Shown here: piece by piece, positions 1 through 46,744 of the stretch
Position numbering within the stretch: the first letter of the stretch is position 1
Layout of the letters: every line of letters starts with the position of its first letter
Source: Escherichia phage PNJ1809-36
Length of the DNA: 64,000 bases
Sequence record: MT944117.1
Strand: one strand, 5' to 3'
Notes under the pieces: model-generated
Seen by the model: the letters and a program-made list of their open reading frames with translations, nothing else
Told to the model about the DNA's origin: nothing
Database searches by the model: none
Position numbers and translations under genes: made by a program

Positions 1-2399
1 CATTCTTCAACTTTAGCAAGGCATTCTTTATCAATTTTCTTTTGTTCTTCAGGATCGTCTACTTTCTTCCAACCTAATGATTCAGGTGAAAACCATTTAA
101 ATTCTACAAGGTTACGAGAAACTTCAAGCTGGGCTTCATCGTGATATGCAATCATTTGTTGCACGAAATCTTTATTCTTCCAGTCATCTTTAAAGAAGTC
201 AACACTTAGTCCTTCTTCTTCGATCATGTCGTCATAAATAACCATTGCACGTTTAGCACAGATAACCCCACCACTTTGGAACAGAGAGTTAAGAATCGCG
301 TGAGCAGAACGAGTAGGAACCTTACGACCGTCAATACCCAAAACATATTGTTTACCAGTCTTAACCCAGAAATCGTTTAAACGTTCTTTAAGACGCGCCA
401 ATGGGAATGCAGCTTCCCAGAAAGCATCAAACACCAATTGACCTGTAAACTTATCGCTACCAATTGTTTTAGCAACCTTGTCGGCTTGTGCACCATAGGT
501 AATACCATACTTAACAGATTTAGCAGGACTACGTTCAAATTTACGTCCGATAGTTTCAGTGATACGTTTTGCCATCATTGTGTGAACATCATTAGGTTTC
601 TCTAACAACAGAGCGTTACAATACTCGTGTGGCTCCGGCTCGTACCGCCAACAGTAGTGTGATTCAATTTTTGCTTCCAAAGAGTCGAAGTCGTAGCCGA
701 TCTGGAAGTATTTAGGAACCTCTACACCAAACAAGTTACGCATCTCCCATCCAAACAAAGATGTGACACGAGGAATATTAGCTACAGACCTATGCTTCAT
801 ACGAGAGGTTGCAGCATCACATGTAGCGGCTGGTGTAGGAATACGCCCATCCGCCCTTACTGCGGCTAAGAAACCTTTATCATATTCTTGATCTTCCTCA
901 TCTTCTTCCCAATCAGCACCGCCACCTAAAATAGAGTTCCTACGATGCTTATACGTTAAGTATTCTACAATCTGTGTAGCATAAGGAAACTTCTCACCCA
1001 AAGCTTGCAGGTTAGGACAAATTTCTTTTTCCTGACCTTTGGTAAAACATGGGTTAGTCAATACTTTAAGACCGCGACCTTTACCTTTTGCTATACGCTC
1101 TTGAATCTTCCTTTCCAAGGTTTCCGGTGTGCACTCCAAATGATCACAACGATCCTGACAAAAATTAGAAGATAAAGTTTGCTCAACGTAAGCTCGAATA
1201 CCTTTCTGAAGTTCTTCCTCGCTCTTTTTAATTTTGGTGCCAGATTTAAGCGTCAAGTCTTTATCTTTATATTCAGACGGTACCCAACCTAATCCTACAA
1301 GCCAGTTTTTAATATGGGTTGTATCGTTCAATGTTGCAGGAATGTTAGGATCACATAGAGGCTCATCTGCTGCAACTGGCAGTTTCCACTCTTTCCCCAA
1401 CATAACTAACCACCAATCGCCATCCCTCTCTTCCAAATGACCATCATGTTTCTTAGCAAAATTGATCATATGGTTAGTTGGCTCTAAGTTCTTTTTAATT
1501 TGCAACTTAGGTGGAATAAAAGCTTTAAGATAACCTTTTGTTGCTGGTTTAGGTGGCAAAATAGGCTCAACGAGTAAACGAAGACGCTCCATTTCTGCAT
1601 CCAAAAAAGCAAGGTTCTCTTCTGCTTGTTTCATGTTAAAAGCAAACCCACGGTGTTCCTGGCGTGTAATAATGTCTGCTACACGTTGTTCAAGTTCAAA
1701 TGGACCTTCCCATTTATCATAATCACCCCATTCTTCCATAAGGTAATTATATACGCTCGTATTGGCTTTGTTGTCATAGATACAGTAATAAAGCATATCC
1801 GCAGCAAAAGTCTTAAATCGATCTTCTTCTGGAATCTCTTTACGGAAATCTATTTTTACATCACCACCTGCTTTTCGAGAAAGTGCTGCCAAGCTATGTC
1901 CTGATTTGCCCTCAATCTTTCGATCTGGGTTTAACACTTTACTCAAAATCAAGGAGTCAATAAGTTTTACCTTATTTTTGCCCCACGTATTATATTTAAC
2001 ACTGTAATCTAATCCATAAAACAGTTTTGTAGCCAACCAGTCGTAGTTGATACCGTTGTGAGCCACAGCCATTTCAACCAGATATTCAGGCTTGTCTTTA
2101 AAATAACCTTCATGATTAATAAAATCTGGGAAATCTTTTAGTTGAAAATGTGTGTAATCTTGCGCCACATACTCTTTAAGAACATATGTGTATTTACCAT
2201 CTGACTCTTCATAAGGACGCCCATCAAAGATGTATTTAGGGCCATCGTGGAAAGCTACTATTTCTCCTGTTTCATGGTTCTCTAAGACAATACAGTGCAT
2301 TTGAAATGTGTCTTTGAGACGATAAGGACTAGCTAAATAATCAATAGTGTCATTATTCAACAATCCGTTTGCTTCAATATCCCATGTAAACTTACTCAC
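1..2399 (-). CDS. DNA polymerase, family A (T7 gp5-like), partial: 3' end runs off window
   Basis: Manual minus-strand translation is open from GTG at 2397-2399 (AAGGAGGA SD upstream, start overlaps methyltransferase stop by 1 nt) to position 1. N-terminus VSKFTWDIEANGLLNND resembles the T7 gp5 exonuclease motif (MIVSDIEANALLE). Downstream motifs YDFDSLEAKI, KSVKYGITYGA and IAYHDEAQLEV fit pol A motifs A, B, C. Not in ORF track because no stop lies in the window. Confidence 0.85.
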   Translation of the reverse strand, partial: MSKFTWDIEANGLLNNDTIDYLASPYRLKDTFQMHCIVLENHETGEIVAFHDGPKYIFDGRPYEESDGKYTYVLKEYVAQDYTHFQLKDFPDFINHEGYFKDKPEYLVEMAVAHNGINYDWLATKLFYGLDYSVKYNTWGKNKVKLIDSLILSKVLNPDRKIEGKSGHSLAALSRKAGGDVKIDFRKEIPEEDRFKTFAADMLYYCIYDNKANTSVYNYLMEEWGDYDKWEGPFELEQRVADIITRQEHRGFAFNMKQAEENLAFLDAEMERLRLLVEPILPPKPATKGYLKAFIPPKLQIKKNLEPTNHMINFAKKHDGHLEERDGDWWLVMLGKEWKLPVAADEPLCDPNIPATLNDTTHIKNWLVGLGWVPSEYKDKDLTLKSGTKIKKSEEELQKGIRAYVEQTLSSNFCQDRCDHLECTPETLERKIQERIAKGKGRGLKVLTNPCFTKGQEKEICPNLQALGEKFPYATQIVEYLTYKHRRNSILGGGADWEEDEEDQEYDKGFLAAVRADGRIPTPAATCDAATSRMKHRSVANIPRVTSLFGWEMRNLFGVEVPKYFQIGYDFDSLEAKIESHYCWRYEPEPHEYCNALLLEKPNDVHTMMAKRITETIGRKFERSPAKSVKYGITYGAQADKVAKTIGSDKFTGQLVFDAFWEAAFPLARLKERLNDFWVKTGKQYVLGIDGRKVPTRSAHAILNSLFQSGGVICAKRAMVIYDDMIEEEGLSVDFFKDDWKNKDFVQQMIAYHDEAQLEVSRNLVEFKWFSPESLGWKKVDDPEEQKKIDKECLAKVEE

Positions 2400-3193
2400 T
2401 ATTCCTCCTTTCTAATGTTCTCCAGAACCCACTGAAGTTCTTTTAAACTTAAACTTCTTACTCCCGCAGTTTTACTAGCTTCAGCTTTAAGTAACGGGTA
2501 AGCCTCAATGATACGCGTTTTAAGATCAGAAGTCAAGGCTTTTAAAAAATAGGTAGATGCTTCAGATAAAGAATCCTCTTCTGATAACACTTTACCTGCA
2601 CTTGCTCCCGCTCTCCTAACGGCTATGTCGTAGTCTTTACTGTTGCCTAATACGAATAGTCGATTTTCTCCTAAAACAACAGGAGAACGCTTCTCGTTGC
2701 GTTTAATCCATATCTGGAATACACAAGGAACATCCCAAGGTTCTCCATGAAGAATAAAAGATCCTTTTGGACATTCTTCTTCGTAAAGAAGATGCATGTG
2801 GGGATTTAGTCTGTGTGCAAAAAAGATTTTTTGAAATGTGCGAGGCAAGATAAAACAAATACCACCTTCGTTATCCAACATTTCAGCACAATGGTTAAAG
2901 AACTTAATGGCAAGACTAGCATTTTTTCCAAACGGAGGATTACCGACAAAAGCAGTTACACTACCAACAGACTCAATAGATTGAGCTAAAAAATCTGCCT
3001 CAATACAATCTTCAAACTTAGGGTCAATATCAAAAGAAGTTATGTTTTTAAAACAAGAAGAGAAAGCCCCTTCTCCCGCAGATGGTTCTACGTAGTTAGC
3101 TTCCTCTCCAAAAATTTCTTTGATCTTATCACATAAGAACCCCGCATAAGCGGGGTTAGTGTAATATTGATCAAGTGTGTTCAACTTGCTCAA
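2399..3193 (-). CDS. DNA amino-methyltransferase (N6-adenine/N4-cytosine class)
   Basis: 264 aa; AdoMet motif VEPSAGEGAF and catalytic NPPF (VGNPPFGKN); N-terminal QYYT. TTG start with AAGGAGGA SD. Confidence 0.7.
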   Translation of the reverse strand: MSKLNTLDQYYTNPAYAGFLCDKIKEIFGEEANYVEPSAGEGAFSSCFKNITSFDIDPKFEDCIEADFLAQSIESVGSVTAFVGNPPFGKNASLAIKFFNHCAEMLDNEGGICFILPRTFQKIFFAHRLNPHMHLLYEEECPKGSFILHGEPWDVPCVFQIWIKRNEKRSPVVLGENRLFVLGNSKDYDIAVRRAGASAGKVLSEEDSLSEASTYFLKALTSDLKTRIIEAYPLLKAEASKTAGVRSLSLKELQWVLENIRKEE

Positions 3194-3202
3194 TAGTCCT
3201 CC

Positions 3203-3634
3203 TTAGTTGTTAGCGAACTCAATAGTGAGGTCAACTTTACCATCGTCAGAAATAACCATGTTTTTGGTATTTTTAAAGATGATATCTACTTTACCTTCAC
3301 TTACACGACAGAATGCAACACCATCTGCAACTTTATCGATATAATATTTGTAAGAAAGAATACCCACTTTACTACGACCAGCACCTTTTGTGAAAGAAGG
3401 GCTTACATCGAAACGGAAACCTTTAGAAGAAACAACACGGTAAGAACGTCCAGTTGGAAGATGTTCAATAACAGAGACATTATTCTCAACAACTTTTACA
3501 GCAAACTCTTCAGGATGATCCTCAACAATCATATGTGGGATGGCAAATGCCAACGCTTGTTTGTGTTTAATAACACCAGCACCCAGAGCACCAGCAGCTT
3601 TAACTTTTGCATTCAGATCGATTGTCATACGCAT
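3203..3634 (-). CDS. hypothetical protein (143 aa), own promoter and upstream terminator
   Basis: ORF track; ATG with AAGAGGAGAAG SD; no motif recognised. Confidence 0.6.
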   Translation of the reverse strand: MRMTIDLNAKVKAAGALGAGVIKHKQALAFAIPHMIVEDHPEEFAVKVVENNVSVIEHLPTGRSYRVVSSKGFRFDVSPSFTKGAGRSKVGILSYKYYIDKVADGVAFCRVSEGKVDIIFKNTKNMVISDDGKVDLTIEFANN

Positions 3635-3667
3635 TTTTACTTCTCCTCTTGTTTGGTTGATGAGACA

Positions 3668-3696
3668 AGTATAAGTCTCTTCCGTAAAGTTGTCAA
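3668..3696 (-). promoter_or_regulatory. consensus sigma70 promoter (TTGACA-17-TATACT) for the 143-aa gene
   Basis: Minus-strand read TTGACAactttacggaagagactTATACT. Confidence 0.6.
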
Positions 3697-3705
3697 CAGG
3701 TATTT

Positions 3706-3726
3706 TTAATAAAAGGGCCGAAGCCC
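3706..3726 (-). terminator. intrinsic terminator after primase-helicase
   Basis: Minus-strand gggc-UUCG-gccc followed by UUUUAUU. Confidence 0.5.
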
Positions 3727-5505
3727 TTAATAGTTGCTATCCGTAGGCAAATTAGCAGGATTGTTGAAATACTGCTCTTTGTCATGCAGAGTTGCAGTTC
3801 TAATGTCATAGTAAAACTGCCCTGCCGGACCAGTTTCTGAGAACTCACGGTTTTTTAGGATAAAGCAATGAGTCGTATTGCGTTCTACAGGGTCTTCAGC
3901 GGCTTTATCTCGTTCCAAAGCCAAGGTAATACCAGCACCTTTAGCCAAGAAACTACTACCCATTGCATCGTCCTCTGTTAAGTGTTCATTGCCACCATTA
4001 GCCGATTTCTTAACGTGTGAGATGACAATAATAGTTATAGCATACTCTTTCATGATGCGCTTCAACCATGTTGCTAACTCTTCCTGGGCTTGAACATCCA
4101 TACCAGAAAGCAAATCAGAATAAGGGTCGATAACAAGAATTGTTACTCCAAAATAGATGATCATCTCCAAAACTTTTTCTTTGATAGACTCCACATCTGC
4201 TCCACGATCATCACACACATAAAAACGTGGTGATCCATCTTCTCTTTCGTAAAAATCTAGGATTTTTTCTTTATTCTCTTCCAAGATTTGAAATTTCTCT
4301 TCCGGTGTTTTCCTGTGTAGAGGAATATGCAGGAACGAGGACAACAGGTTACGAGAATATTTCTTATAAGTTGCTTCCAAGGACAGAATACCTAGGGTAT
4401 GTTCTGGGTGCGCAACAATAATATGTTTGGTGATCTCGTTCACCATCAAAGTTTTACCGATACTGGTCTTTGCCAGGATAACTGTAATCTCTTCCTCTAC
4501 TAAACCACCACCCAGCATGTTTGCAGCTACACGCATAAAAGGAGGCAAGGTAATCATCTTGGATTCCAAGCATTCTAATGCAGCTTCATACAAGACATTA
4601 GAAGCATAAACACCTGCTGGGGTGTATAGACGAGCACTCCAAAAAGCTTTTACGAAATCTTTTGCACGGCCTTCTTCCAGATACTGATTGGCATCCTTTA
4701 GATCCATCTGCATACGGTAGACTTTGTTACGAGGCAGCACCTTAACAATATTTTCAAATGCCTCATTACCTGCTTTGTCATTATCCATGCAAACAATAAT
4801 CTTCTTAAATTTTTCAAAGAAAGGATATTGTGCCTGAACTTGTTTATACATACTGGTTTCACCAGTTGTGCCACTAACTACTGCTGGAAGTTCATATTTG
4901 TTGTCCAAGTTTTCAGACAGCATTTGATAAGCTGCCAGAGCATCGTGTTCACCACCTGTAATTACCACAGTGTGAGAACGGTCTGCAAAACGAATTTGTC
5001 CAAAAAGATCTACATCTTTACCTACTTGACCAATAGGTTTACTGAAATCTTTAGGATGAATACGACGCTTAAAACCAACCAATTCTTTACCGATGGTAGT
5101 CGGATATAAACAACTTTCTACTACCATCTGATCTCCTTCCTGACGGTATTCATAACGAACACCATAGAAAGATGAAACTTTTTCTTTAATGCCTCGATAA
5201 CCACGTGGGTTGGTTGATGTTTCTTGAACAATTTTACGATGAATCTGTTTATTAAATTCCGAACCCACAATCTCCTCCTCTTCTTCTAAAACTTCACCAT
5301 TTTCTCGTAACCATTCTACGCTAGGAATAGTGTATTCACACGCAAAGCACTTAGCACCTTTATGCTCTCCATTAGAATCTAATCCATAAACCATCAGGTT
5401 ATTACGAGAGCGATCCTTGCCATTTTTCATGCAGCGCGGACAACCTGTATGCCCTTCCTTGCTAAGATCAACATCAAATCCATATTTAGTTATAATGTGC
5501 GACAC
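3727..5505 (-). CDS. DNA primase-helicase (T7 gp4-like)
   Basis: 592 aa; N-terminal Cys4 zinc ribbon (CPRC...CFAC), TOPRIM-like VVITGGEHDALAA, C-terminal helicase Walker A ILAKTSIGKT and Walker B LVIDPYSDL; GTG start with AGGAG SD. Confidence 0.8.
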   Translation of the reverse strand: MSHIITKYGFDVDLSKEGHTGCPRCMKNGKDRSRNNLMVYGLDSNGEHKGAKCFACEYTIPSVEWLRENGEVLEEEEEIVGSEFNKQIHRKIVQETSTNPRGYRGIKEKVSSFYGVRYEYRQEGDQMVVESCLYPTTIGKELVGFKRRIHPKDFSKPIGQVGKDVDLFGQIRFADRSHTVVITGGEHDALAAYQMLSENLDNKYELPAVVSGTTGETSMYKQVQAQYPFFEKFKKIIVCMDNDKAGNEAFENIVKVLPRNKVYRMQMDLKDANQYLEEGRAKDFVKAFWSARLYTPAGVYASNVLYEAALECLESKMITLPPFMRVAANMLGGGLVEEEITVILAKTSIGKTLMVNEITKHIIVAHPEHTLGILSLEATYKKYSRNLLSSFLHIPLHRKTPEEKFQILEENKEKILDFYEREDGSPRFYVCDDRGADVESIKEKVLEMIIYFGVTILVIDPYSDLLSGMDVQAQEELATWLKRIMKEYAITIIVISHVKKSANGGNEHLTEDDAMGSSFLAKGAGITLALERDKAAEDPVERNTTHCFILKNREFSETGPAGQFYYDIRTATLHDKEQYFNNPANLPTDSNY

Positions 5506-17085: not shown

Positions 17086-18060
17086 TTAAACAGCAGCTTC
17101 TTCTTTTTCAGGGAAGATAAAGCTTGCAATAACACCAAGAGCTAATGTGCCTAGAACAATCATCAGACTTACGTTAGGGGAAATATCATGCGGGAGGAAT
17201 GACCACTTGGCATGAAGTGTTTCACCGAACGGGTGATACATAAGTTTAGCACCAACAAACACCAGAACCACAGCAACAGCTTTCTCTAAGTGAACCAGAT
17301 ATTTCACAGCTACACTTAACACAAAGAAAAGTGCACGTAAACCAAGAACAGCCATCAGCATTGCAGAATAAACTAGCAGAGGTTCTTGTGTCACACCGAT
17401 CACAGCCGGAACTGAATCAAAAGAGAAGACAATATCTGTAAGCTCAATAACAAACACACAAAGAATAGCAGGAGTTGCATATTTAATACCATTCTTAATG
17501 GTGATGAACTTTTCACCATCCAGTGCATTGTGCACAGGCAGAACTTTACCTACTAAACGAACAGCCCAATGCTTAGAGTAATCAATATCCTCTTCTTCGT
17601 CACCACCTTTGATGATAGCCACGGCAGACCAAGCTACAATCAAACCGAACAACACTTGGACCGACCAATGAAGGTTAAACAAAGCGGTCCCTGCTGCAAC
17701 AAAAATACCTCGGAAGACAATGGCTCCTGCAATCCCCCAAAGTAAAATCTTATGTTGGAGATGTGTGCTCTTAATTCCAAAGCTTGCAAAAATTGCCATG
17801 AACACCATCAGGTTATCTACAGAAAGACTCTTTTCCAACACATAGCCACTTAGGAAAAGCGCGGCAAACTCTTTACCATGTTCTACCCAAATGAATGCGT
17901 AATATCCTAAAGCTAAAGCAATCCAAAAAACAGACCAAAGCAAAGCAGATTTAATTCCAATTTCTTTATTCTCTTTGTGACCAAAGAAATCAATACCAAT
18001 AGACAATGCTAAAATACCAACTAAAACAACTACATCAATAATTGGGAAACCAAGTTGCAT
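17086..18060 (-). CDS. TerC-family integral membrane protein
   Basis: 324 aa, multi-pass hydrophobic; LEKSLSVDN and FSFDSVPAV match the two TerC DN/DS motifs. Confidence 0.7.
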   Translation of the reverse strand: MQLGFPIIDVVVLVGILALSIGIDFFGHKENKEIGIKSALLWSVFWIALALGYYAFIWVEHGKEFAALFLSGYVLEKSLSVDNLMVFMAIFASFGIKSTHLQHKILLWGIAGAIVFRGIFVAAGTALFNLHWSVQVLFGLIVAWSAVAIIKGGDEEEDIDYSKHWAVRLVGKVLPVHNALDGEKFITIKNGIKYATPAILCVFVIELTDIVFSFDSVPAVIGVTQEPLLVYSAMLMAVLGLRALFFVLSVAVKYLVHLEKAVAVVLVFVGAKLMYHPFGETLHAKWSFLPHDISPNVSLMIVLGTLALGVIASFIFPEKEEAAV

Positions 18061-18077
18061 TCTTTTCTCCTCTCTTT

Positions 18078-18136
18078 GCGGGGAACTATTCCCCGCTTCA
18101 TGTGATATATCTTACTCTTTTTAAGAACTATGTCAA
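18078..18136 (-). promoter_or_regulatory. promoter plus leader-hairpin cassette driving TerC (TTGACA-16-TAAGAT, hairpin gcggggaaTAGttccccgc)
   Basis: Same architecture as the rightward cassettes at 40.3-50 kb, on the minus strand. Confidence 0.55.
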
Positions 18137-18139
18137 CAC

Positions 18140-18361
18140 TTATTTTGTTGAATGAGAGGAAAAGATTCCTCGTAATACAGCCAGAATAAACGAAACACAA
18201 ACCACGGTCCAGAAGGTTACTGGGACAGTGATATCTGCATGACCCATAACTTCAGCAACATAGTTGTAAGCCAGCAACAGTAACCAAGCTGGAATCAAAC
18301 TAAGCATAAAAGCAATAACAAAAAAGCTTACCACTGCAACAATACCTGCAAAAACACCCAT
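18140..18361 (-). CDS. small membrane protein (73 aa)
   Basis: ORF track; two hydrophobic segments; GAGGAG SD. Confidence 0.45.
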   Translation of the reverse strand: MGVFAGIVAVVSFFVIAFMLSLIPAWLLLLAYNYVAEVMGHADITVPVTFWTVVCVSFILAVLRGIFSSHSTK

Positions 18362-18373
18362 ACTAATCTCCTC

Positions 18374-18847
18374 TTAAAGTTTATAAATAGTCACATCGTG
18401 ACCTGTTTTTACTAAAGTTTCTTCAATCATCACTTGGATGATAGCCCAATTACCTCCAGCATATCCAGCGCCAATCATAGGTAAGCCGATCTTACATTTT
18501 TGGTCACGGAGAAGCAAATCGTTAGCCATAGCTATTAGTGCATCGTAAAGTGCATCATAGTCCAACTGACGACCTTTAGCATTGTATCCGTAACGGTATT
18601 GCCCGTATAGATTATATACCAAAGGGTCTGATTGTTCGTCTGGCACCCCTAAACTAAAACAACCTAGTTTACTTTGATCACCAGCCATTGTGTCTAAGTC
18701 TGCTGCATATGCGTAAGGAAATGCTTGTTTGATTTGTGGGGCAATACCTGCCCCCATATTACACATACAGTTGCAACAATGAGCAATAACAGTTACTTCA
18801 CCTGCTTTAGCGGCATCAATAAGATTACCTGTTTTCATTTTAAGCAT
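18374..18847 (-). CDS. macro-domain-like protein
   Basis: ORF track trimmed to ATG with AAGGAG SD right after PRTase stop; GNLIDAAKAGEVTVIAHCCNC...GAGIA and KIGLPMIGAGYAGG resemble the macro-domain N- and C-terminal motifs. Confidence 0.5.
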   Translation of the reverse strand: MLKMKTGNLIDAAKAGEVTVIAHCCNCMCNMGAGIAPQIKQAFPYAYAADLDTMAGDQSKLGCFSLGVPDEQSDPLVYNLYGQYRYGYNAKGRQLDYDALYDALIAMANDLLLRDQKCKIGLPMIGAGYAGGNWAIIQVMIEETLVKTGHDVTIYKL

Positions 18848-23512: not shown

Positions 23513-23541
23513 AAATCAAAAAAGGCGCAAAGTGCGCCTTT
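23513..23541 (-). terminator. intrinsic terminator downstream of 472-aa gene
   Basis: Minus-strand aaaggcgca-CUU-ugcgccuuu followed by UUUUUUGAUUUU. Confidence 0.6.
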
Positions 23542-39234: not shown

Positions 39235-39365
39235 CCTATACAAACCCTTATCTTTTTCAGTTTGCATCACTAGGATTCGATCTAAGTGGGTTCCTGAAGG
39301 TTTACCAATAAGATTAAAGGTTATCTCAAATTCCCACTACCTATTATCTCAAAAATCCCTCAAAT

Positions 39366-39431
39366 TATTTAAACTTTTTAAGAATTTACAAAAGTGAAAG
39401 TTGAAAACCAAAATTTAAAGTTTAGGAAAAT
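39366..39431. repeat. direct repeat copy 1 (about 65 bp, AT-rich)
   Basis: atttaaac...tttacaaaagtgaaagttgaaaaccaaaatttaaagtttaggaaaatt, imperfect copy of 39505..39570. Confidence 0.6.
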
Positions 39432-39504
39432 TATCTTAAAATGTTAGATACAAAACAAAACTCAAAAGTCAAGGAAAATTTTAAAAATTTTGCGCGCCCA
39501 CAGT

Positions 39505-39570
39505 ATTTAAAGTTTTTTTGCTTTTACAAAAATGAAAGTACAAAAGCAAAATTTAAAGTTTACAAAAATT
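39505..39570. repeat. direct repeat copy 2
   Basis: atttaaag...tttacaaaaatgaaagtacaaaagcaaaatttaaagtttacaaaaattt. Confidence 0.6.
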
Positions 39571-39610
39571 TATGCAGATGGGAATGAGAAGAGTTCTCAT
39601 ATGGAAATGC

Positions 39611-39631
39611 AAATGATAATGATTCGCATTT
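39611..39631. promoter_or_regulatory. Fur-box-like operator A
   Basis: aaATGATAATGATTcgCATTt versus E. coli Fur consensus GATAATGATAATCATTATC. Confidence 0.4.
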
Positions 39632-39668
39632 AGGTTTATAAATGAGATTGATTCTTATTTGATAAGGT

Positions 39669-39689
39669 AAATGATAATCATTCTCATTT
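39669..39689. promoter_or_regulatory. Fur-box-like operator B
   Basis: aAATGATAATCATTcTCATTt. Confidence 0.45.
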
Positions 39690-40322: not shown

Positions 40323-40381
40323 TTGACGTTCGCCAGGTGGCGGCATAATATTTACCACGTAGGGCGGCAATGGTGCCGCTC
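40323..40381 (+). promoter_or_regulatory. promoter-hairpin cassette U1 (TTGACG-17-TAATAT, leader hairpin gggcggcAAUGGUgccgcuc)
   Basis: -35/-10 then a GC hairpin at the predicted transcript 5' end, then SD and ATG at 40401. Confidence 0.6.
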
Positions 40382-40400
40382 ATTATTTGGAGTTAAGATC

Positions 40401-40598
40401 ATGGCAACATTGCACATTGTGGCGAAAGCTGGACAAATCAACGTAATAGTAAACGGTTTTACTGAGTTCAGTCATCCCCAGGATGATCATGAAACGGTTT
40501 TATCTTTCATTGATTCACTGTTAGAAATGGGAGTAATTACAGAAGATCAGCATACTGCAAAATGCAAGCGCGTTAAGCAGATTGCAGGAATAGAATAA
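40401..40598 (+). CDS. hypothetical protein (about 65 aa)
   Basis: ORF track 40323..40598 trimmed to ATG after SD; the track start is the TTG of the -35 box. Confidence 0.45.
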   Translation: MATLHIVAKAGQINVIVNGFTEFSHPQDDHETVLSFIDSLLEMGVITEDQHTAKCKRVKQIAGIE

Positions 40599-40603
40599 AA
40601 GTC

Positions 40604-40666
40604 TTGACAACAAGCCACAACCTGATAAGATGTATCACATAGGGCGGCGGAATGGTCCAGCCGCTC
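40604..40666 (+). promoter_or_regulatory. promoter-hairpin cassette U2 (TTGACA-16-TAAGAT)
   Basis: Hairpin gggcggcggAAUGGUccagccgcuc. Confidence 0.6.
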
Positions 40667-40689
40667 ACAACAGAAGAGAGATTATAATC

Positions 40690-40962
40690 ATGGCATCATA
40701 TAGCGCAACAATGATCGTAGCTGGCACAACTGGTAAACCTATGAGCGGTGGCGGATCTTTCGCTAATATCAATATTGACGGGCGTTTATCCCTGGACGCA
40801 GCGATTGCCATTGCACGGGAAACATTTAAGAAAGAATGTAATTTCAACAAGCAAGATTATCTCGGTTTCGCTATTGAAAAAACCGCGCGCTTTGTTGATT
40901 ATAAAAGCCCGAAAATGGTTGATACTACACTAAAAGCGCAAGATGTAGCGTTTTTGCTTTAA
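40690..40962 (+). CDS. hypothetical protein (about 90 aa)
   Basis: ORF track trimmed to ATG with AGAAGAGAG SD. Confidence 0.45.
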   Translation: MASYSATMIVAGTTGKPMSGGGSFANINIDGRLSLDAAIAIARETFKKECNFNKQDYLGFAIEKTARFVDYKSPKMVDTTLKAQDVAFLL

Positions 40963-40965
40963 GGC

Positions 40966-41020
40966 TTGACATTAACGAATAATTTGTTAATATGTTACAT
41001 AAAGCGGGAATAGTTCCCGC
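40966..41020 (+). promoter_or_regulatory. promoter-hairpin cassette U3 (TTGACA-16-TAATAT)
   Basis: Hairpin gcgggaAUAGUUcccgc. Confidence 0.6.
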
Positions 41021-41038
41021 TATTTGTAAGGTGGTAGA

Positions 41039-41296
41039 ATGTTTTACATCAAATTAAAAGGTCACGTGATCGCGTTCAAAGATAACGCTTTTTACAGATT
41101 AGCAAAATATGCGTTAATACATCCCCACTATGTTTATATAAGGGGGCGTGATGAAATAAATATCTTTGATCAAACAACATGCGAGAACATCGAGATCCGC
41201 AAGGTTGGCGTACGTGATTATCGTACATCTTTCTACCCTTGCAAGGATTCAGCAAGTCTTTTTAAAGTATGCCAATTGTTGAAAAAAGGTGGTTAA
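41039..41296 (+). CDS. hypothetical protein (85 aa)
   Basis: ORF track. Confidence 0.45.
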   Translation: MFYIKLKGHVIAFKDNAFYRLAKYALIHPHYVYIRGRDEINIFDQTTCENIEIRKVGVRDYRTSFYPCKDSASLFKVCQLLKKGG

Positions 41297-41297
41297 T

Positions 41298-41855
41298 ATG
41301 GGCCGCGAATATGTGATCCAGTCTTGGGTAAAACATGAAGCAGATGATCCGCGCATCATTCCCGATCATCTTATCGATGAATCCACGGGATATAGCGGTG
41401 AGCAAATAGGTAACAGATTAGCACGTAGTAACGGCAACGTAAAAGCGCGTTATGTGCGCCCTGGCTGGCTGGCAAATGGTAACGCTGATTTATCCAGTGC
41501 GGAAGATGCGAGCGACGGCGCGAAAGATAATCCTTTGTACAAAGTTGATCCGGCTTTTCGTGTCCTGGATGAATACCCCAGCAAGATAGCGGCGCTTGAT
41601 GAAGCATTAGAAAGTAAGCGCATAACCTGGACCGCTTACAACATGGCAAAAAACGTACTTGATGGTAAATTGATTCAAGCCGAAAGAAAATTAGCCAAAA
41701 TTGCAGCCATAGCCCAGGAGGAAGACGAGGAGACAACGGAAGAGGAAGAGTACGAAGAGATCCCGCCGTTGTTGTGTATTGATGCTTTTCCTGATTATCA
41801 GCCGACAGAGGAAGAAAAAAGGATCGCACTAGAAAACTTTGAAAATAGTCTTTGA
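41298..41855 (+). CDS. hypothetical protein with acidic C-terminus (about 185 aa)
   Basis: ORF track trimmed to ATG; no own promoter. Confidence 0.45.
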   Translation: MGREYVIQSWVKHEADDPRIIPDHLIDESTGYSGEQIGNRLARSNGNVKARYVRPGWLANGNADLSSAEDASDGAKDNPLYKVDPAFRVLDEYPSKIAALDEALESKRITWTAYNMAKNVLDGKLIQAERKLAKIAAIAQEEDEETTEEEEYEEIPPLLCIDAFPDYQPTEEEKRIALENFENSL

Positions 41856-41910
41856 CATATCGCCGCCACTGGTATAATATTTACCACGTAGGGCGGCAAT
41901 GGTGCCGCTC
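41852..41910 (+). promoter_or_regulatory. promoter-hairpin cassette U4 (TTGACA-15-TATAAT)
   Basis: -35 overlaps upstream stop; hairpin identical to U1. Confidence 0.6.
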
Positions 41911-41937
41911 ATAGTGAAATTATGCAAGAGGTTTACA

Positions 41938-42033
41938 ATGATTAATAAAGAAAATAGCTTGACGGTTGGAACGATTAACGCTATCATTTTCGCCGTTCCA
42001 TTTTGGGTTGTAGTAGCGGCTATTATTTTCTAA
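41938..42033 (+). CDS. small hydrophobic peptide (31 aa)
   Basis: Manual translation MINKENSLTVGTINAIIFAVPFWVVVAAIIF; sole ORF behind cassette U4. Confidence 0.3.
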   Translation: MINKENSLTVGTINAIIFAVPFWVVVAAIIF

Positions 42034-42041
42034 AAATATTC

Positions 42042-42102
42042 TTGACAACGTTTTTTAATCTGATAAGATGTATCACATAGGGCGGCGGAATACTTCCCCG
42101 CC
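42042..42102 (+). promoter_or_regulatory. promoter-hairpin cassette U5 (TTGACA-16-TAAGAT)
   Basis: Hairpin gggcggcggaaUACuuccccgcc. Confidence 0.6.
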
Positions 42103-42123
42103 AAAACAAAAAAGGGTAACACA

Positions 42124-42486
42124 ATGAGCAAGCAAATCAATACTATCATGTTTAATCTGGTATCTTTCCGCGATGATATGAAAAATTTACCACGTGAAAC
42201 GGTTGATATTCATGTTTCAGCTTATCGCGCCCTTATTGATATGTTACCGCTAAAACGTGATCAACATGCCGCTAATATGATGCTTAATGCTATGCTTAAA
42301 AAGATGATTCAAACGGATCTTACTCTGGCGTATGAGTATCAAGGGCGCTTATATGCTACTTACAACAAGGCGGTACCTGGTCTGGGAAGTACCGAAGAGT
42401 TGCACGGCTTAAACTTGGATCAGAACACTTGGGATAGTATGCGCCGCGTTATGGTATGGGCCGAAAGCGGTAAAATTTACGAATAA
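42124..42486 (+). CDS. hypothetical protein (120 aa)
   Basis: ORF track. Confidence 0.45.
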   Translation: MSKQINTIMFNLVSFRDDMKNLPRETVDIHVSAYRALIDMLPLKRDQHAANMMLNAMLKKMIQTDLTLAYEYQGRLYATYNKAVPGLGSTEELHGLNLDQNTWDSMRRVMVWAESGKIYE

Positions 42487-42492
42487 AAACGG

Positions 42493-42552
42493 TTGACACT
42501 GTTTAAAATTCCGGTATAGTTTACCACATAGGGCGGGAAGTGGTTTCCCGCC
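42493..42552 (+). promoter_or_regulatory. promoter-hairpin cassette U6 (TTGACA-16-TATAGT)
   Basis: Hairpin gggcgggaaGUGGUuucccgcc. Confidence 0.6.
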
Positions 42553-42574
42553 AACAATGAAAAAGGTTATCATC

Positions 42575-42940
42575 ATGGCTATTAATATTAATGTTTCCTC
42601 TTATGCTACCCTGGCTAACACGGCTAAAATTGAATTATCCAGCATTGAGGCGGTGCATATTAGCGCCCGTCGCTGGTTTCAACAGTCCTACGGTAACACA
42701 TATTTTTCTTTAATGGTTGACGTTGAGATCGGCGGTAAACTGATCGAGGTGGTTAACGTTCCGTTTCAATATGGCTATGGTGATCATTTTGATACCGTCG
42801 CCCTGGAAGAATTTAGCAAGGTTATCAACCTTGAGGGCAAGGAATTTTCACGCGGCGCGTATCTTTCCCGTTTTTGCCGTGACAATGGGATCACTGTATA
42901 CAGTCATGCAAGCGATGTTAAACGTAAAAAAGATCTATAA
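42575..42940 (+). CDS. hypothetical protein (about 121 aa)
   Basis: ORF track 42557..42940 trimmed to second ATG (MAININ) by analogy with 43447. Confidence 0.4.
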   Translation: MAININVSSYATLANTAKIELSSIEAVHISARRWFQQSYGNTYFSLMVDVEIGGKLIEVVNVPFQYGYGDHFDTVALEEFSKVINLEGKEFSRGAYLSRFCRDNGITVYSHASDVKRKKDL

Positions 42941-42946
42941 AAAGCA

Positions 42947-43008
42947 TTGACAGCACGAATAAAAAGAGTAAACTGTATTACATAGAGAGCGGGAACACTT
43001 CCCGCCTC
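42947..43008 (+). promoter_or_regulatory. promoter-hairpin cassette U7 (TTGACA-16-TAAACT)
   Basis: Hairpin gcgggaaCACuucccgc. Confidence 0.6.
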
Positions 43009-43029
43009 ACTGAAAAAGAGAGAAAAATC

Positions 43030-43269
43030 ATGGCTAAATCTAAAATGTACAACGGTCACAAAAACAAAACTCATTGGAATGTAAGCCTGTGGATTAATAA
43101 CGATGAGGGATTGTATCGGTTTGCATTGGGATTGATCAATGAGTGCGGTAATAAAGATCAGGCGGCTGATTTAATGTGCTACCGTTTGAAACAGGATGGA
43201 ATCACTACAACGCCAGACGGCTTTAAGTATAGTAAAACTGCAATCCGCGCCGCTATGGTTGGAATGTAA
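43030..43269 (+). CDS. hypothetical protein (79 aa)
   Basis: ORF track. Confidence 0.45.
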   Translation: MAKSKMYNGHKNKTHWNVSLWINNDEGLYRFALGLINECGNKDQAADLMCYRLKQDGITTTPDGFKYSKTAIRAAMVGM

Positions 43270-43282
43270 AGGAGACATAAAA

Positions 43283-43363
43283 ATGAAACATCGTTCGACC
43301 TATCTCACAAAACGTTTTAGCTTAGATCATAAATTGGGCTATTACGGAAGAAATAGAAAATAA
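43283..43363 (+). CDS. possible 26-aa peptide
   Basis: AAGGAGACATAAAA then ATG; MKHRSTYLTKRFSLDHKLGYYGRNRK; very short. Confidence 0.2.
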   Translation: MKHRSTYLTKRFSLDHKLGYYGRNRK

Positions 43364-43364
43364 T

Positions 43365-43424
43365 TTGACAACGTTTAAAATTAGTGTAAGATGTATCACA
43401 TAGGGCGGGAAGTGGTTTCCCGCC
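43365..43424 (+). promoter_or_regulatory. promoter-hairpin cassette U8 (TTGACA-16-TAAGAT)
   Basis: Hairpin identical to U6. Confidence 0.6.
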
Positions 43425-43446
43425 AACAACAGAGAGATTAAAGATT

Positions 43447-43674
43447 ATGGCTATCAATATTGTTCGTGTATCCGGCACCGTTGGCAGTTCCCAGGTTGTA
43501 GCAGTTGTAACAAACAAAAAGATTAATGATGTATGTGAGATCTTGAATAAGTGGGCTATTGCTAATTTTGGAGAATATGCGAGCGTCGAGTACATCGAAT
43601 CCTACCAGGTGCCAACCATCAGCCTAACCGATCTCAACGTTGATCGCCTGTTATGCCTGGATGAATTAATCTGA
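43447..43674 (+). CDS. hypothetical protein (75 aa)
   Basis: ORF track. Confidence 0.45.
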   Translation: MAINIVRVSGTVGSSQVVAVVTNKKINDVCEILNKWAIANFGEYASVEYIESYQVPTISLTDLNVDRLLCLDELI

Positions 43675-43683
43675 AAAAGATTG

Positions 43684-43741
43684 TTGACACGGGAAAGAAA
43701 AAGAGTAAACTGTATTACGTAGGGCGGCAATGGTGCCGCTC
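43684..43741 (+). promoter_or_regulatory. promoter-hairpin cassette U9 (TTGACA-16-TAAACT)
   Basis: Hairpin identical to U1. Confidence 0.6.
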
Positions 43742-43764
43742 ACAACAGAAGAGAGATTATCACG

Positions 43765-43980
43765 ATGGCTAATATCCGCACACTGTTAAAAAATGCAAGT
43801 CAAGTTTTATTTTCAGATGACGAGTATTTCAATAAAGACATTACGGGCGTAAAAAGTCTTAAAGATGTAAAGGATGTAATAGGTATTCGCGGATCTTTAC
43901 GTAAGGGCGATTACTACGGTAACAAGGTGCAATATAAACTGTCAAAAGATTATGATTTTACTTTGACAATTATCAACTAA
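43765..43980 (+). CDS. hypothetical protein (71 aa)
   Basis: ORF track. Confidence 0.45.
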   Translation: MANIRTLLKNASQVLFSDDEYFNKDITGVKSLKDVKDVIGIRGSLRKGDYYGNKVQYKLSKDYDFTLTIIN

Positions 43981-43991
43981 GGGATCACAAA

Positions 43992-44150
43992 ATGAAAACT
44001 TGCCAATGTGGTAAAAAGTCTATCTCTGGTTTAAAACGTGGCGTTGCTCTTTGTCAATACCACTATAACGCTCAAACGTGGGGTAAGCAGTGGGCGGATC
44101 AGGTGGAAGAGGCAAAGAAAGAAAATATAAAAGTAGTTGCAAAGAAATAA
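43992..44150 (+). CDS. hypothetical small Cys-containing protein (52 aa)
   Basis: Manual translation MKTCQCGKKSISGLKRGVALCQYHYN... Confidence 0.35.
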   Translation: MKTCQCGKKSISGLKRGVALCQYHYNAQTWGKQWADQVEEAKKENIKVVAKK

Positions 44151-44199
44151 AAATAGAGTAAACTGTATTACATCAAGGCGGCGGAATGGTCCACCGCCT
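44137..44199 (+). promoter_or_regulatory. promoter-hairpin cassette U10 (TTGCAA-16-TAAACT)
   Basis: Hairpin ggcggcggAAUGGUccaccgcc. Confidence 0.5.
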
Positions 44200-44222
44200 A
44201 ACAAAGAGAAGAGGAAAATATC

Positions 44223-44390
44223 ATGATCACTTTCGCTACCCGTGAAGCCGCTCGCAACGTTGCACGTAAAGTTAACGCCGCCAACTTGGGCGCTACGCTT
44301 AAAGCCCCTGTAAAAGATGAATCAGGAAAATGGATCTTACCTGGTCTGCGTCATGCTGACAAGTTAGGTACTTTAAGCCTTAAAAAATAA
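44223..44390 (+). CDS. hypothetical basic protein (55 aa)
   Basis: Manual translation MITFATREAARNVARKVNAANLG... Confidence 0.4.
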   Translation: MITFATREAARNVARKVNAANLGATLKAPVKDESGKWILPGLRHADKLGTLSLKK

Positions 44391-44393
44391 TCG

Positions 44394-44431
44394 TTGACTT
44401 TTCGTTATAGCGCCTTATAATGGGCGCTATA
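44394..44431 (+). promoter_or_regulatory. promoter U11 (TTGACT-16-TATAAT) with -10 inside the loop of a 9-bp palindrome
   Basis: tatagcgccTTATAATGggcgctata. Confidence 0.5.
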
Positions 44432-44464
44432 GAGAAGAGAAACCACTATTAACAAGGAAACATC

Positions 44465-44686
44465 ATGATTACTTTTGCTATTGTCGCCGTTGTTGCTGGT
44501 CAGGTTTACGTAAACGAGACATTTACTACAGAAGACAAGGCCGCAGGAGATATAACCGCCGTTTACAATGAGTGCAAGGCAGTAGAAAGGATGTTATCGC
44601 CTTGTATGCTAATGAGTGAACGTCAGGATGGGATAACAGTATTTACTAACATTGAAACAGGGTACCAAATGGTAGTAACAAAATAA
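44465..44686 (+). CDS. hypothetical protein (73 aa)
   Basis: ORF track. Confidence 0.45.
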   Translation: MITFAIVAVVAGQVYVNETFTTEDKAAGDITAVYNECKAVERMLSPCMLMSERQDGITVFTNIETGYQMVVTK

Positions 44687-44689
44687 AGC

Positions 44690-44747
44690 TTGACACGTAT
44701 TTAATTTTCAGTAAACTGTTACACGTAGGGCGGGAATAGTTCCCGCT
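44690..44747 (+). promoter_or_regulatory. promoter-hairpin cassette U12 (TTGACA-16-TAAACT)
   Basis: Hairpin gggcgggaAUAGUUcccgcu. Confidence 0.6.
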
Positions 44748-44764
44748 AAAAAGAGAGAAAGACC

Positions 44765-45118
44765 ATGAAAGCACAAAATGCAATTAAAGAGTACATCCTT
44801 GCCGCTATCGATTTTAATGATTATGGTATTACAACCGAAAAAGAGAAGATCGCGGAATTGATGCGCCGTTTTAATTCCGAGTACTGGTACCCTGATAACC
44901 AATCACGTTTTAATTATAGTATTGTTAAAGCACTTGCATCATGGTTACAAGGTTTGCCATCAGATATTAATATCGCTTTCGAATATTGGGAAATTGATCG
45001 CTTGTTAACATCCTGGGGATACATTAAAGAGAATAGCAGCGATGATAAAATCCAACGAGAAAGGGAAAATTATTGGCTTTATATTGCAGGCGTGATCCTT
45101 GCTTGCTCTTATGAATGA
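44765..45118 (+). CDS. hypothetical protein (117 aa)
   Basis: ORF track. Confidence 0.45.
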   Translation: MKAQNAIKEYILAAIDFNDYGITTEKEKIAELMRRFNSEYWYPDNQSRFNYSIVKALASWLQGLPSDINIAFEYWEIDRLLTSWGYIKENSSDDKIQRERENYWLYIAGVILACSYE

Positions 45119-45124
45119 TAAACC

Positions 45125-45178
45125 TTGACAATTTTACAAAACAGTTTAAATTAATAATATAGCGGCAATGGTGCCGCT
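45125..45178 (+). promoter_or_regulatory. promoter-hairpin cassette U13 (TTGACA, AT-rich -10 region)
   Basis: Hairpin agcggcAAUGGUgccgcu; exact -10 register ambiguous. Confidence 0.5.
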
Positions 45179-45197
45179 CATATAAAGAGGAAACAAA

Positions 45198-45344
45198 ATG
45201 AATACATCTAATCGCGCAGAAAAAATTCAATCTTCCAAGATCCGCAAGGCCTGGAATGAGGAAGTGATCCGCAAAGGCGACAAGCGCAATAAAACAAAGC
45301 GCGGGAAGAGTGACAAATATAATTGGATGGATTTAGAGAATTAA
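45198..45344 (+). CDS. hypothetical basic protein (48 aa)
   Basis: Manual translation MNTSNRAEKIQSSKIRKAWNEEVIRKG... Confidence 0.4.
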   Translation: MNTSNRAEKIQSSKIRKAWNEEVIRKGDKRNKTKRGKSDKYNWMDLEN

Positions 45345-45350
45345 CATAAC

Positions 45351-45378
45351 AAGGGCGCACCAAGCGCCCTTTCTTTTT
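45351..45378 (+). terminator. intrinsic terminator, copy 1 of a duplicated 28-mer
   Basis: aagggcgcACCAAgcgcccuu followed by UCUUUUU; same sequence at 50806..50833. Confidence 0.7.
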
Positions 45379-45399
45379 ACATGTAGAGGATAAACAAAA

Positions 45400-45585
45400 A
45401 TGACTTTAAACGAGCTTAAAACAGCCTATAACGCAACATTAAAAATAGCCGTGCGTTACCGTGACGAATACGGTTTTATTGCGCAGGGCGTGATCCTGGG
45501 CTTTTCTGACGATGGTTTGATCTATGTTGATGCACATCACAACAAGGTTAAACTTGAAAACGTCATTAGCATAAAATATCTTTAA
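45400..45585 (+). CDS. hypothetical protein (61 aa)
   Basis: ORF track. Confidence 0.4.
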   Translation: MTLNELKTAYNATLKIAVRYRDEYGFIAQGVILGFSDDGLIYVDAHHNKVKLENVISIKYL

Positions 45586-45591
45586 AAGTGG

Positions 45592-45651
45592 TTGACACCA
45601 TAACCGGACCTGTTAAACTGTATTACATCAGGCGGGGAATAGTTCCCCACC
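45592..45651 (+). promoter_or_regulatory. promoter-hairpin cassette U14 (TTGACA-16-TAAACT)
   Basis: Hairpin ggcggggaAUAGuuccccacc. Confidence 0.55.
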
Positions 45652-45670
45652 ATACAAAAAGGTAAATATT

Positions 45671-45877
45671 ATGATCACCGCAAAACAAGAAAAAATCATT
45701 ATCGACGTTGCAGCCGTTGCCGCTATTGCTATTATCGGTACCTACTATGACACCGCGCGTCCTTCCTCCTTGCATGAGATCGCCGCCGTTGCATCAGTTG
45801 GCGTGCTGTTTTACGTTGGTAAACGTTATTTATCACCAATGATTAACAAGCTGACACCGTGGAAAAATAAAGGTTGA
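45671..45877 (+). CDS. small membrane protein (68 aa)
   Basis: ORF track; hydrophobic segments. Confidence 0.45.
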   Translation: MITAKQEKIIIDVAAVAAIAIIGTYYDTARPSSLHEIAAVASVGVLFYVGKRYLSPMINKLTPWKNKG

Positions 45878-45932
45878 TCCTGTTTTATATTGTGTTATAG
45901 TTATCGTGTAGGGCGGCAATGGTGCCGCGCCC
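45874..45932 (+). promoter_or_regulatory. promoter-hairpin cassette U15 (TTGATC-16-TATAGT)
   Basis: Hairpin gggcggcAAUGGUgccgcgccc. Confidence 0.5.
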
Positions 45933-45948
45933 CTTTGAGGATGCAATC

Positions 45949-46233
45949 ATGAGTAAAGCTAACACCGTGCTAATGTTTTCCCTGATTAATGATCCCGCTT
46001 ACTTGTCCAACATGACGCAGGAGGGTAACACATTAACGGCAACATTCACCAATAAGCTTGACCGAGTGATCATCATCTCACTGAAAACAGTTAGTAAAGG
46101 CTTTTACTCGTTAGCTTATCATTGGATCACTGATACCGATGAGACAAGCCAGGACTATAGCGCCCCTTTCCCTGAATCAATGGCACGGGAGATCATCGCC
46201 GCCGTTGTAAATGATGGTTTGTTTACTGCATAA
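45949..46233 (+). CDS. hypothetical protein (about 94 aa)
   Basis: ORF track 45919..46233 trimmed; the track start is the AUG inside the hairpin loop. Confidence 0.45.
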   Translation: MSKANTVLMFSLINDPAYLSNMTQEGNTLTATFTNKLDRVIIISLKTVSKGFYSLAYHWITDTDETSQDYSAPFPESMAREIIAAVVNDGLFTA

Positions 46234-46251
46234 AATAATTTAGAAAAAGGC

Positions 46252-46308
46252 TTGCAATCATTTTGAGATAGTGTATATTTAATTCATAGGGCGGCGGGAA
46301 TAGTTCCC
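46252..46308 (+). promoter_or_regulatory. promoter-hairpin cassette U16 (TTGCAA-16-TATATT)
   Basis: Hairpin gggaaUAGuuccc with 5' gggcggc extension. Confidence 0.5.
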
Positions 46309-46331
46309 AAAGCAAACGAGAGGATTACACG

Positions 46332-46451: not shown

Positions 46452-46461
46452 GGTGCACACC

Positions 46462-46623: not shown

Positions 46624-46632
46624 GGGGATAAC

Positions 46633-46743: not shown

Positions 46744-46744
46744 T

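Follow-up and report, generated by a model that had tools for sequence, protein, structure and literature searches.

Of the systems described so far, the one closest to the locus considered here is the PeSL (promoter-early stem-loop) cassette, known from T4-like phages (Arbiol et al. 2010, PMC2839356; Comeau et al. 2014, PMC4122927). PeSLs are characterized by a strong sigma-70-like promoter, an AT-rich sequence upstream of it and a G/C stem-loop, and they are located between the stop codon of one ORFan and the Shine-Dalgarno sequence of the next. These elements are clustered in plastic regions of the genome, with a few copies near auxiliary genes, and they have been described as recombination linkers (PMC2839356, PMC4122927).

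In this work, we describe a promoter-hairpin cassette that stands ahead of a TerC-family gene of Escherichia phage PNJ1809-36 (sequence record MT944117.1), in a stretch of 64,000 nucleotides referred to here as the window. The usual leader of bacterial TerC-family genes, such as alx and ykoY, is the yybP-ykoY Mn2+ riboswitch. Among the Rfam families, including RF00080 (yybP-ykoY), no match reached the gathering score in the window, and none was found at E up to 10 in positions 17900-18450. We favor, with a probability of roughly 0.55, the reading that a copy of an early-gene cassette stands ahead of TerC, that it is transcribed by the host sigma-70 polymerase, and that its hairpin acts as a 5' structure of the RNA.

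The source is a phAPEC8-like E. coli myovirus. The 8-kb stretch around the TerC site is 98.8-99.3% identical to the Phapecoctavirus phages iGC_PHA_EC001, phAPEC8, ESCO13 and others; this genus belongs to Stephanstirmvirinae and comprises myoviruses of about 148 kb. The window corresponds approximately to phAPEC8 from 103.8 kb through the end of the record to about 20 kb. The TerC unit consists of the following parts:

18142-18140, minus strand: TAA stop codon of the upstream 73-aa ORF
18136-18131, minus strand: -35 hexamer TTGACA, 3 nt past the TAA of the upstream ORF
18114-18109, minus strand: -10 hexamer TAAGAT, separated from the -35 hexamer by a 16-nt spacer
Between the -10 TAAGAT and the hairpin, minus strand: the 12 nt ATATCACATGAA
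18103-18101, minus strand: predicted transcription start, from sigma-70 geometry and the array motif CACATAG/CACGTAG
18096-18078, minus strand: hairpin GCGGGGAA-TAG-TTCCCCGC with a perfect 8-bp stem, in RNA form GCGGGGAA-UAG-UUCCCCGC
18077-18061, minus strand: purine-rich leader AAAGAGAGGAGAAAAGA between the hairpin and the TerC ATG
18071-18067, minus strand: Shine-Dalgarno sequence AGGAG inside the leader, 6 nt ahead of the ATG
18060, minus strand: TerC start codon ATG
17086-18060, minus strand: gene for a TerC-family integral membrane protein of 324 aa (Pfam PF03741, E 4.7e-40)
17079-17055, minus strand: intrinsic terminator AGCCTCCTTCGGGAGGCT followed by ATTTTAT, beginning 6 nt past the TerC stop

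The promoter of this unit (TTGACA/16/TAAGAT) is of the near-consensus E. coli sigma-70 type, and the 30 nt upstream of it contain 70% A+T (mean over 33 units, 72%; genome, 61%). Because of the usual sigma-70 geometry and the conserved C-A step, the start of the TerC transcript is placed at about 18101; it is most likely the A at 18101 in CAC-A-TG, the eighth nucleotide past the -10 hexamer. The mRNA would then open with 5'-AUGAA and continue directly into the hairpin, leaving 5 unpaired nucleotides, while most units of the early array presented below would leave 3. In the classic ompA work, 5 unpaired nucleotides are said to be the upper edge of the protective range. The TerC-unit hairpin folds with about -13 to -14.6 kcal/mol, and the 67-nt TerC leader folds better than shuffled sequences (z = -2.8).

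The array that supplies the family for comparison is located in the early region of the window and is encoded on the other strand:

40323-49851, plus strand: main array with 18 full promoter-hairpin-SD units and 3 degenerate units
45874-45935, 46252-46320 and 47331-47396, plus strand: the degenerate units, in which hairpin, leader and Shine-Dalgarno sequence are kept and the -35/-10 hexamers are degenerate or missing

Each unit of the array stands ahead of a small ORF, and these ORFs all belong to PHROGs without known function. The units are characterized by a common architecture of TTGACA, 16 nt, TAnnnT, GTATyACRTAG, a G+C hairpin, a purine-rich leader, a Shine-Dalgarno sequence and an ATG. 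The hairpin starts 8-12 nt past the -10 hexamer in every full unit and is followed by CAACAG, TCACAAC or TAAAAAG, whereas stem length, loop size and the spacing from GCGG to CCGC vary inside one genome. Pairing is found in 96.7% of the cells of the array stems and compensatory changes occur in 5 of 8 pairs, counts that are flattered by an alignment fitted to the model. The distance of the hairpin from the -10 hexamer is fixed in all units and lineages and the stem sequence is free, as would suit a generic RNA structure whose place is set by the 5' end. The retention of the hairpin in units with a degenerate promoter counts against this reading, since it shows that some role is left to the hairpin inside a longer transcript as well. 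The sense RNA folds only slightly better than the antisense RNA (21 units against 12, p = 0.09), and action of the hairpin at the RNA level is favored as the more probable view. In blastn searches with an array unit, matches came almost exclusively from Phapecoctavirus and Justusliebigvirus records.

Several other repeated sequences were observed around this region. An 18-bp palindrome, AATGAtAATnATTcTCAT, occurs at 7 sites, giving 12 strand matches where 0.6 are expected, in ORF-poor stretches that flank the early array:

39583-39688: four tandem copies of the palindrome with 29-nt spacing
51040-51058, 51828-51845 and 52007-52025: further sites of the palindrome

One copy of AATGAtAATnATTcTCAT agrees with the Fur-box consensus of E. 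coli in 16 of its 19 positions. The palindromes could form a protein-binding array, for example an origin, a Fur titration site or a regulator site. The non-coding stretch upstream of the array also contains a 72-nt direct repeat that is 82% identical between its copies (39361-39432 and 39499-39570), and three paralogous small ORFs of 104-108 aa are found at 57054-57368, 60283-60609 and 61042-61368, in DNA segments that are 60-80% identical.

The TerC site truly belongs to the cassette family of the array. MAFFT alignments of all units (A1-A3) placed the stems out of register and returned a consensus of 3 pairs only; because stem register was lost in this way, a covariance model (R1) was bootstrapped from five array units of the same geometry (alignment A4), with the TerC site excluded. 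In a search with filters off, R1 gave the TerC site 53.0 bits (E 2.4e-10), which ranks it seventh among the matches of the window, and also recovered the remaining array units there. A second model, R2, for which Infernal realigned 17 array units (A6), gave the site 49.7 bits (E 3.3e-10), above several true array units; the R2 scores of the array range from 34.7 to 73.8 bits. It is the high score from a model built without the site that establishes the membership. The order and spacing of the parts are shared as well, with TTGACA, 16 nt, TAnnnT, 8-12 nt containing CACRT, a G+C hairpin, a purine-rich leader with a Shine-Dalgarno sequence, and an ATG, and the phAPEC8 allele of the TerC unit carries the exact array discriminator GTATCACAT.

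These results also bear on an accidental resemblance, in which a promoter-like string and a GC-rich palindrome would have come to stand before TerC by chance. Hexamer pairs resembling promoters are indeed common in this AT-rich genome and show no enrichment, with 61 found in 18 kb against 48 expected. The composite promoter-hairpin pattern, however, is expected only 0.08 times by chance in the window, the hairpin pattern was found 3 times against 0.02 expected, and the E value of R1 comes from a model blind to the site, which is itself conserved in several lineages with compensatory changes. The probability of accident is negligible, and we regard it as already refuted. The sequence-only reading of this DNA had described a promoter, a hairpin and a Shine-Dalgarno sequence upstream of TerC, and all of them are present on the minus strand at the positions listed above. 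Its further claim that this is the same cassette as in the array units is borne out by both covariance models, and the cassette is placed and oriented so as to drive TerC. That reading was also right about the orientation opposite to the array; the distance, which it had put at 20 kb, is really 22 kb, as the array begins at 40323.

Outside 39.8-49.9 kb, R2 gave no match at E < 0.1 in the window other than the TerC unit. In the complete phAPEC8 genome (147.7 kb; R2, filters off), the array was found at 143676-147569 and 240-4538, and the only significant non-array match is the TerC unit at 121904-121969 (53.7 bits). In Justusliebigvirus VEcB, R2 recovered one array of about 15 units and only one match outside it, which is the TerC unit (36.3 bits). 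The window also contains at least seven intergenic promoters of the TTGACA type without a hairpin:

3696, 11219, 30399 and 32805, minus strand: hairpin-free TTGACA-type promoters
50299, 61833 and 62749, plus strand: hairpin-free TTGACA-type promoters

The other phAPEC8 promoter annotated with MEME, which corresponds to the one at about 3696 of the window on the minus strand, consists of a terminator and a plain promoter with no hairpin. The existence of strong promoters without a hairpin, taken with matches confined to the array and TerC, indicates two classes of host-type promoter, and the hairpin-coupled class is limited to the early array and TerC. The description of the cassette as a genome-wide regulatory module has to be abandoned, given that the whole-genome covariance searches of phAPEC8 and VEcB return the array and a single TerC copy only. 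In the genomes searched, TerC is the only non-array gene with the cassette, a state that is conserved in at least two genera and is mildly surprising. In the literature, we met with no description that connects the TerC site with the array family or notes TerC as its only non-array carrier.

Two weaker matches were recorded in these searches. In phAPEC8, the sequence at 45628-45695 on the minus strand (18.9 bits, E 0.023), located upstream of phAPEC8_00112, contains TTGACT, 16 nt and TATAAT followed by the hairpin TGGGAGGAG-gtgagt-CCTCCCA, which includes the Shine-Dalgarno sequence; it was rejected as a family member, since the hairpin is a different one. In Klebsiella phage phi1_175008, a second weak cassette-like match (18.5 bits, E 0.009) is located upstream of the small ORF that precedes TerC.

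The TerC gene belongs to PHROG 7180, in the category 'moron, auxiliary metabolic gene and host takeover'. Its neighbors are a TelA-like gene (PHROG 5890, 'tellurite resistance'), a ComF-like PRTase (PF15610), a HAD hydrolase and a Macro-domain gene, and the same list of components has been given for phage Ter systems (PMC7824862). With such neighbors, the earlier description of this region as a Ter-like block is reasonable. The proposal that TerC is separately promoted within it also looks correct, as the gene has its own promoter and leader and its own terminator, both of which are conserved while the flanks diverge. At the sequence level, TerC thus carries the two marks of a moron, its own promoter (18136-18061) and its own terminator (17079-17055). 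The possession of its own cassette and its own intrinsic terminator makes TerC self-contained and moron-like, and the gene most likely constitutes a self-contained early transcription unit. No terminator was found between the upstream ORF (stop at 18140) and the TerC-unit cassette, so that TerC may also be expressed by read-through.

The promoter, hairpin, leader and terminator are all present at the TerC locus of ESCO37, phiWec190, phi92, VEcB (Justusliebigvirus) and Klebsiella phage phi1_175008, as well as in four IMG/VR contigs, and in two of these the hairpin is a new variant. In Escherichia phage EP57, TerC is split into two ORFs by a frameshift or as a pseudogene, and the cassette and the terminator are intact. 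The -35 hexamer is kept as TTGACA or TTGACT in all units of TerC orthologues, and the spacing of 16 nt is kept with a different spacer sequence in phi92 (-10 TATAGT), Klebsiella phi1_175008 (TAATAT) and two IMG/VR contigs (TAGAAT, TAAAGT). The hexamers and their spacing are thus retained where the identity of the spacer and of the upstream sequence falls to 14-50%, which points to selection on the promoter. Identity to phi92 is 14-50% upstream of the cassette and 78-95% over the hairpin, the leader and the 5' end of TerC; between the genera, conservation is highest over the leader and the TerC 5' end. The terminator, too, persists in phi92, phiWec190, the Klebsiella phage and the IMG/VR contigs, where its stem shows compensatory changes.

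Six distinct stems were found at the TerC locus, namely GCGGGGAA, GCGGGGAG, GCGGAGGA, AGAGGGGG, AGGGAGAG and AGAGGGAG. In these stems, 94% of the cells are paired, compared with 53-74% in slid controls; compensatory changes occur in 5 of 9 pairs, and the folding energies of the orthologous hairpins range from -13.4 to -15.0 kcal/mol. The stem sequence has been changed repeatedly while pairing was kept, which indicates selection on structure at this locus. Concerted evolution of the TerC and array hairpins was tested and none was found, since the stems differ in the Klebsiella phage, where hairpins of the GGCGGGAA type occur in the array and the AGAGGGGG stem is found at TerC. The TerC stems of the IMG/VR contigs have no sequence in common with their array stems. 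As far as these sequences can tell, structure and not stem sequence is what matters.

The same comparisons are relevant to a view of the cassette as a recombination linker or relic, that is, a patch of DNA homology by which modules of a cassette and an ORF are moved, TerC having arrived in this way with a hairpin that is idle at its new place. No cassette of this kind precedes TerC in Klebsiella phage KP13-16 or Cronobacter phage GAP52, which points to lineage-specific acquisition, and the nucleotide homology with phi92 starts inside the cassette and stops at the terminator. In the array, 5 of 8 breakpoints (indel or replacement) relative to phAPEC8, a small sample, are no more than about 40 nt away from a cassette:

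42006, 43357, 44149, 47397 and 47717: breakpoints near cassettes, window compared with phAPEC8

An idle hairpin would sit poorly with a stem that changed its sequence and yet kept its pairing at TerC under selection on the structure. Moreover, the local recombination joint is located elsewhere: in the mosaic stretch at about 17940-18420 of the window, the sequence agrees with that of ESCO37 at every position of the upstream ORF, the cassette and about the first 120 nt of TerC (100% identity), and past this joint, up to the terminator, it is about 100% phAPEC8-like and 55-85% ESCO37-like. The cassette as the recombination breakpoint at TerC was rejected because the joint lies about 120 nt inside the gene. 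As the explanation of the feature, a linker is quite unlikely, but it is compatible with the favored reading of an early-gene cassette with a 5' RNA structure, and both can hold.

The hairpin has also been interpreted as a terminator. The record of phage ASO2A annotates a promoter at the TerC site, calls the hairpin a rho-independent 'terminator' (WebGeSTer), and annotates the terminator after TerC too. No U- or T-tract follows the TerC-unit hairpin on either strand (AAAGAGAGG on the sense strand, TTCATGTG on the other), and a terminator scan did not report this hairpin, whereas it did report the site after TerC. An intrinsic terminator was rejected because the T-run is missing. A related proposal would make the hairpin a PeSL-type insulator that attenuates or terminates RNA polymerase arriving from upstream, with the units expressed from their own promoters only and the place of the hairpin in its own transcript incidental. 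Such an activity has a precedent in the cassette stem-loop of T4-like phi1/RB49, which lowered lacZ expression about as much as rrnB T1 did (PMC2839356), and it would agree with the ASO2A label, with the hairpin-only units of the array and with the lack of any other terminator between the upstream ORF and TerC. Yet the hairpin lies downstream of its own promoter, where an efficient terminator would stop its own transcript too; U-tracts are missing after the array hairpins as well as at TerC; and the genuine T-run terminators (after TerC and at 45.35, 50.24 and 50.80 kb) are separate from the hairpins. We consider this proposal unlikely, though worth keeping in view. In the same context, a symmetric hairpin, AAAGGCGCAnnnTGCGCCTTT, with T-runs on both strands was observed at 23521-23541 between nrdD and the next gene, where it resembles a bidirectional terminator.

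The loops of the hairpins were compared in a set of 41 from three phages (the window, Justusliebigvirus VEcB and Klebsiella phage phi1_175008). The apical sequence AAURGUU (AUGG or AUAG) is present in 27 of them, with variable lower stems, and a U-N-G apical motif in 32, including all TerC orthologues. Such an apex could be read as the binding site of a trans-acting factor, with a protein recognizing either the RNA loop or, as a DNA operator, the inverted repeat at +5 to +25, so that the early genes and TerC would be switched jointly. A position just past the start site is a classic one for an operator. A rigid dimeric DNA binder is nevertheless difficult to reconcile with the variable stem, loop and GCGG-CCGC spacing, the TerC stems of the Klebsiella phage and the IMG/VR contigs are unlike their array stems, and the conservation of the loop may reflect common descent or gene conversion. 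No candidate protein was found among the array and neighboring ORFs, all of which fall in PHROGs of unknown function, and we hold such a factor to be very improbable.

A related and more speculative idea, which we consider doubtful, would treat the apical AAURGUU or U-N-G loop as the address tag of a post-transcriptional immediate-early regulon. An RNA-binding factor, either of the phage or hijacked from the host, would stabilize, translate or shut off the tagged mRNAs, and TerC would be the sole gene of a known family enrolled. If this were true, a membrane or metal-homeostasis function of the TerC type would be needed in the first minutes of infection, for example in superinfection exclusion or ion balance.

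In the favored reading, the cassette comprises a near-consensus host sigma-70 promoter with an AT-rich upstream sequence and a conserved CACAT start region. The G+C-rich stem-loop would be the mRNA's first structured element, with 3-5 nt between it and the 5' end; downstream of it lie an unstructured purine-rich leader, which contains a strong Shine-Dalgarno sequence, and then the start codon. The small early ORFs are preceded by about 20 tandem copies, and one extra copy is placed before TerC, which would form a moron-like unit inside a long leftward block of replication and nucleotide-metabolism genes. Unmodified host RNA polymerase would probably transcribe TerC from the onset of infection, alongside the early genes. 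The hairpin would most likely shield the 5' end from 5'-end-dependent attack and scanning by RNase E, and it may also partly insulate the unit against read-through from upstream.

The protective role is favored because of what has been reported for E. coli mRNAs, whose life is prolonged by 5'-terminal stem-loops (Emory, Bouvet and Belasco 1992, as cited in PMC7509114) and on which structured obstacles hinder the scanning of RNase E from the 5' end (Richards and Belasco, PMC9943677). An Srd-like activator of RNase E has been reported for gp11 of phage rV5 (PMC3606486). When such an activator was sought among the ORFs at 32.3-39.1 kb and those of the array, all were assigned to PHROGs without known function. 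The literature yielded neither a transcriptome nor mapped start sites for Stephanstirmvirinae, and no account of phage TerC being expressed early.

For the widespread coliphages of the genera Phapecoctavirus and Justusliebigvirus, which are candidates for therapy, this reading gives a testable prediction, namely that TerC, as the only gene of a recognizable family to do so, shares its expression cassette with the earliest host-takeover genes and is insulated by a terminator of its own. Its confirmation would indicate an early role for the phage TerC protein and would extend the PeSL idea of units for regulation and shuffling beyond the T4-like phages, in a variant with the stem-loop in the mRNA. 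Public annotation is affected too. The phAPEC8 GenBank record (JX561091.1) labels the TerC site as a 'putative host dependent promoter determined with MEME', and its 20-nt features called 'putative promoter determined with PHIRE' directly follow or overlap sigma-70 promoters and coincide, in the phAPEC8 array, with the part of the cassettes that is the hairpin. The PHIRE features are probably misannotated as phage-specific promoters; they and the ASO2A 'terminator' before TerC can be corrected to the hairpin part of the cassette.

Compared with known systems, the locus shares with the yybP-ykoY riboswitch a structured RNA leader ahead of a TerC-family gene, but the phage leader is only about 40 nt long and contains one simple hairpin. 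It resembles the hairpin of the ompA 5' UTR in having a stable hairpin a few nucleotides from the predicted 5' end, with a strong ribosome-binding site next to it; in contrast to stabilizers of the ompA type, its function is read here from geometry, and with 5 unpaired nucleotides the protection may be incomplete. Like the lambdoid morons (Hendrix et al. 2000, as discussed in PMC2839356), TerC is a lone accessory gene that has a promoter and a terminator to itself inside a larger block. Unlike them, it is carried by a virulent phage, so that expression from a prophage does not arise, it is oriented as its neighbors are, and its promoter is the phage's own early cassette.

The similarity to PeSLs is the broadest. 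Both have a near-consensus sigma-70 promoter, an AT-rich upstream sequence and a stem-loop of a G-run and a C-run, with a stop codon just before the cassette and a Shine-Dalgarno sequence and start codon just after it. Both occur in many copies in a plastic region of small ORFs and in few copies beside auxiliary genes (nrdD and hoc in T4-like phages, TerC here), and in both, indel breakpoints of close relatives are found at cassettes, although the TerC copy itself is not at one. The present cassettes differ in belonging to Stephanstirmvirinae and not to T4-like phages, and they have no sequence homology to the T4-like cassettes. The PeSL kind is further defined by demonstrated activity as promoter and terminator and by the formation of mini-circles. 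The PeSL stem-loop is variable in position (five subclasses), is located at or before the start, and has been described as a terminator (PMC2839356), whereas the stem-loop described here, known from sequence alone, is fixed 8-12 nt past the -10 hexamer and would be part of the transcript. The feature is real and conserved, and it is of a PeSL-like kind that was already known and has been partly annotated.
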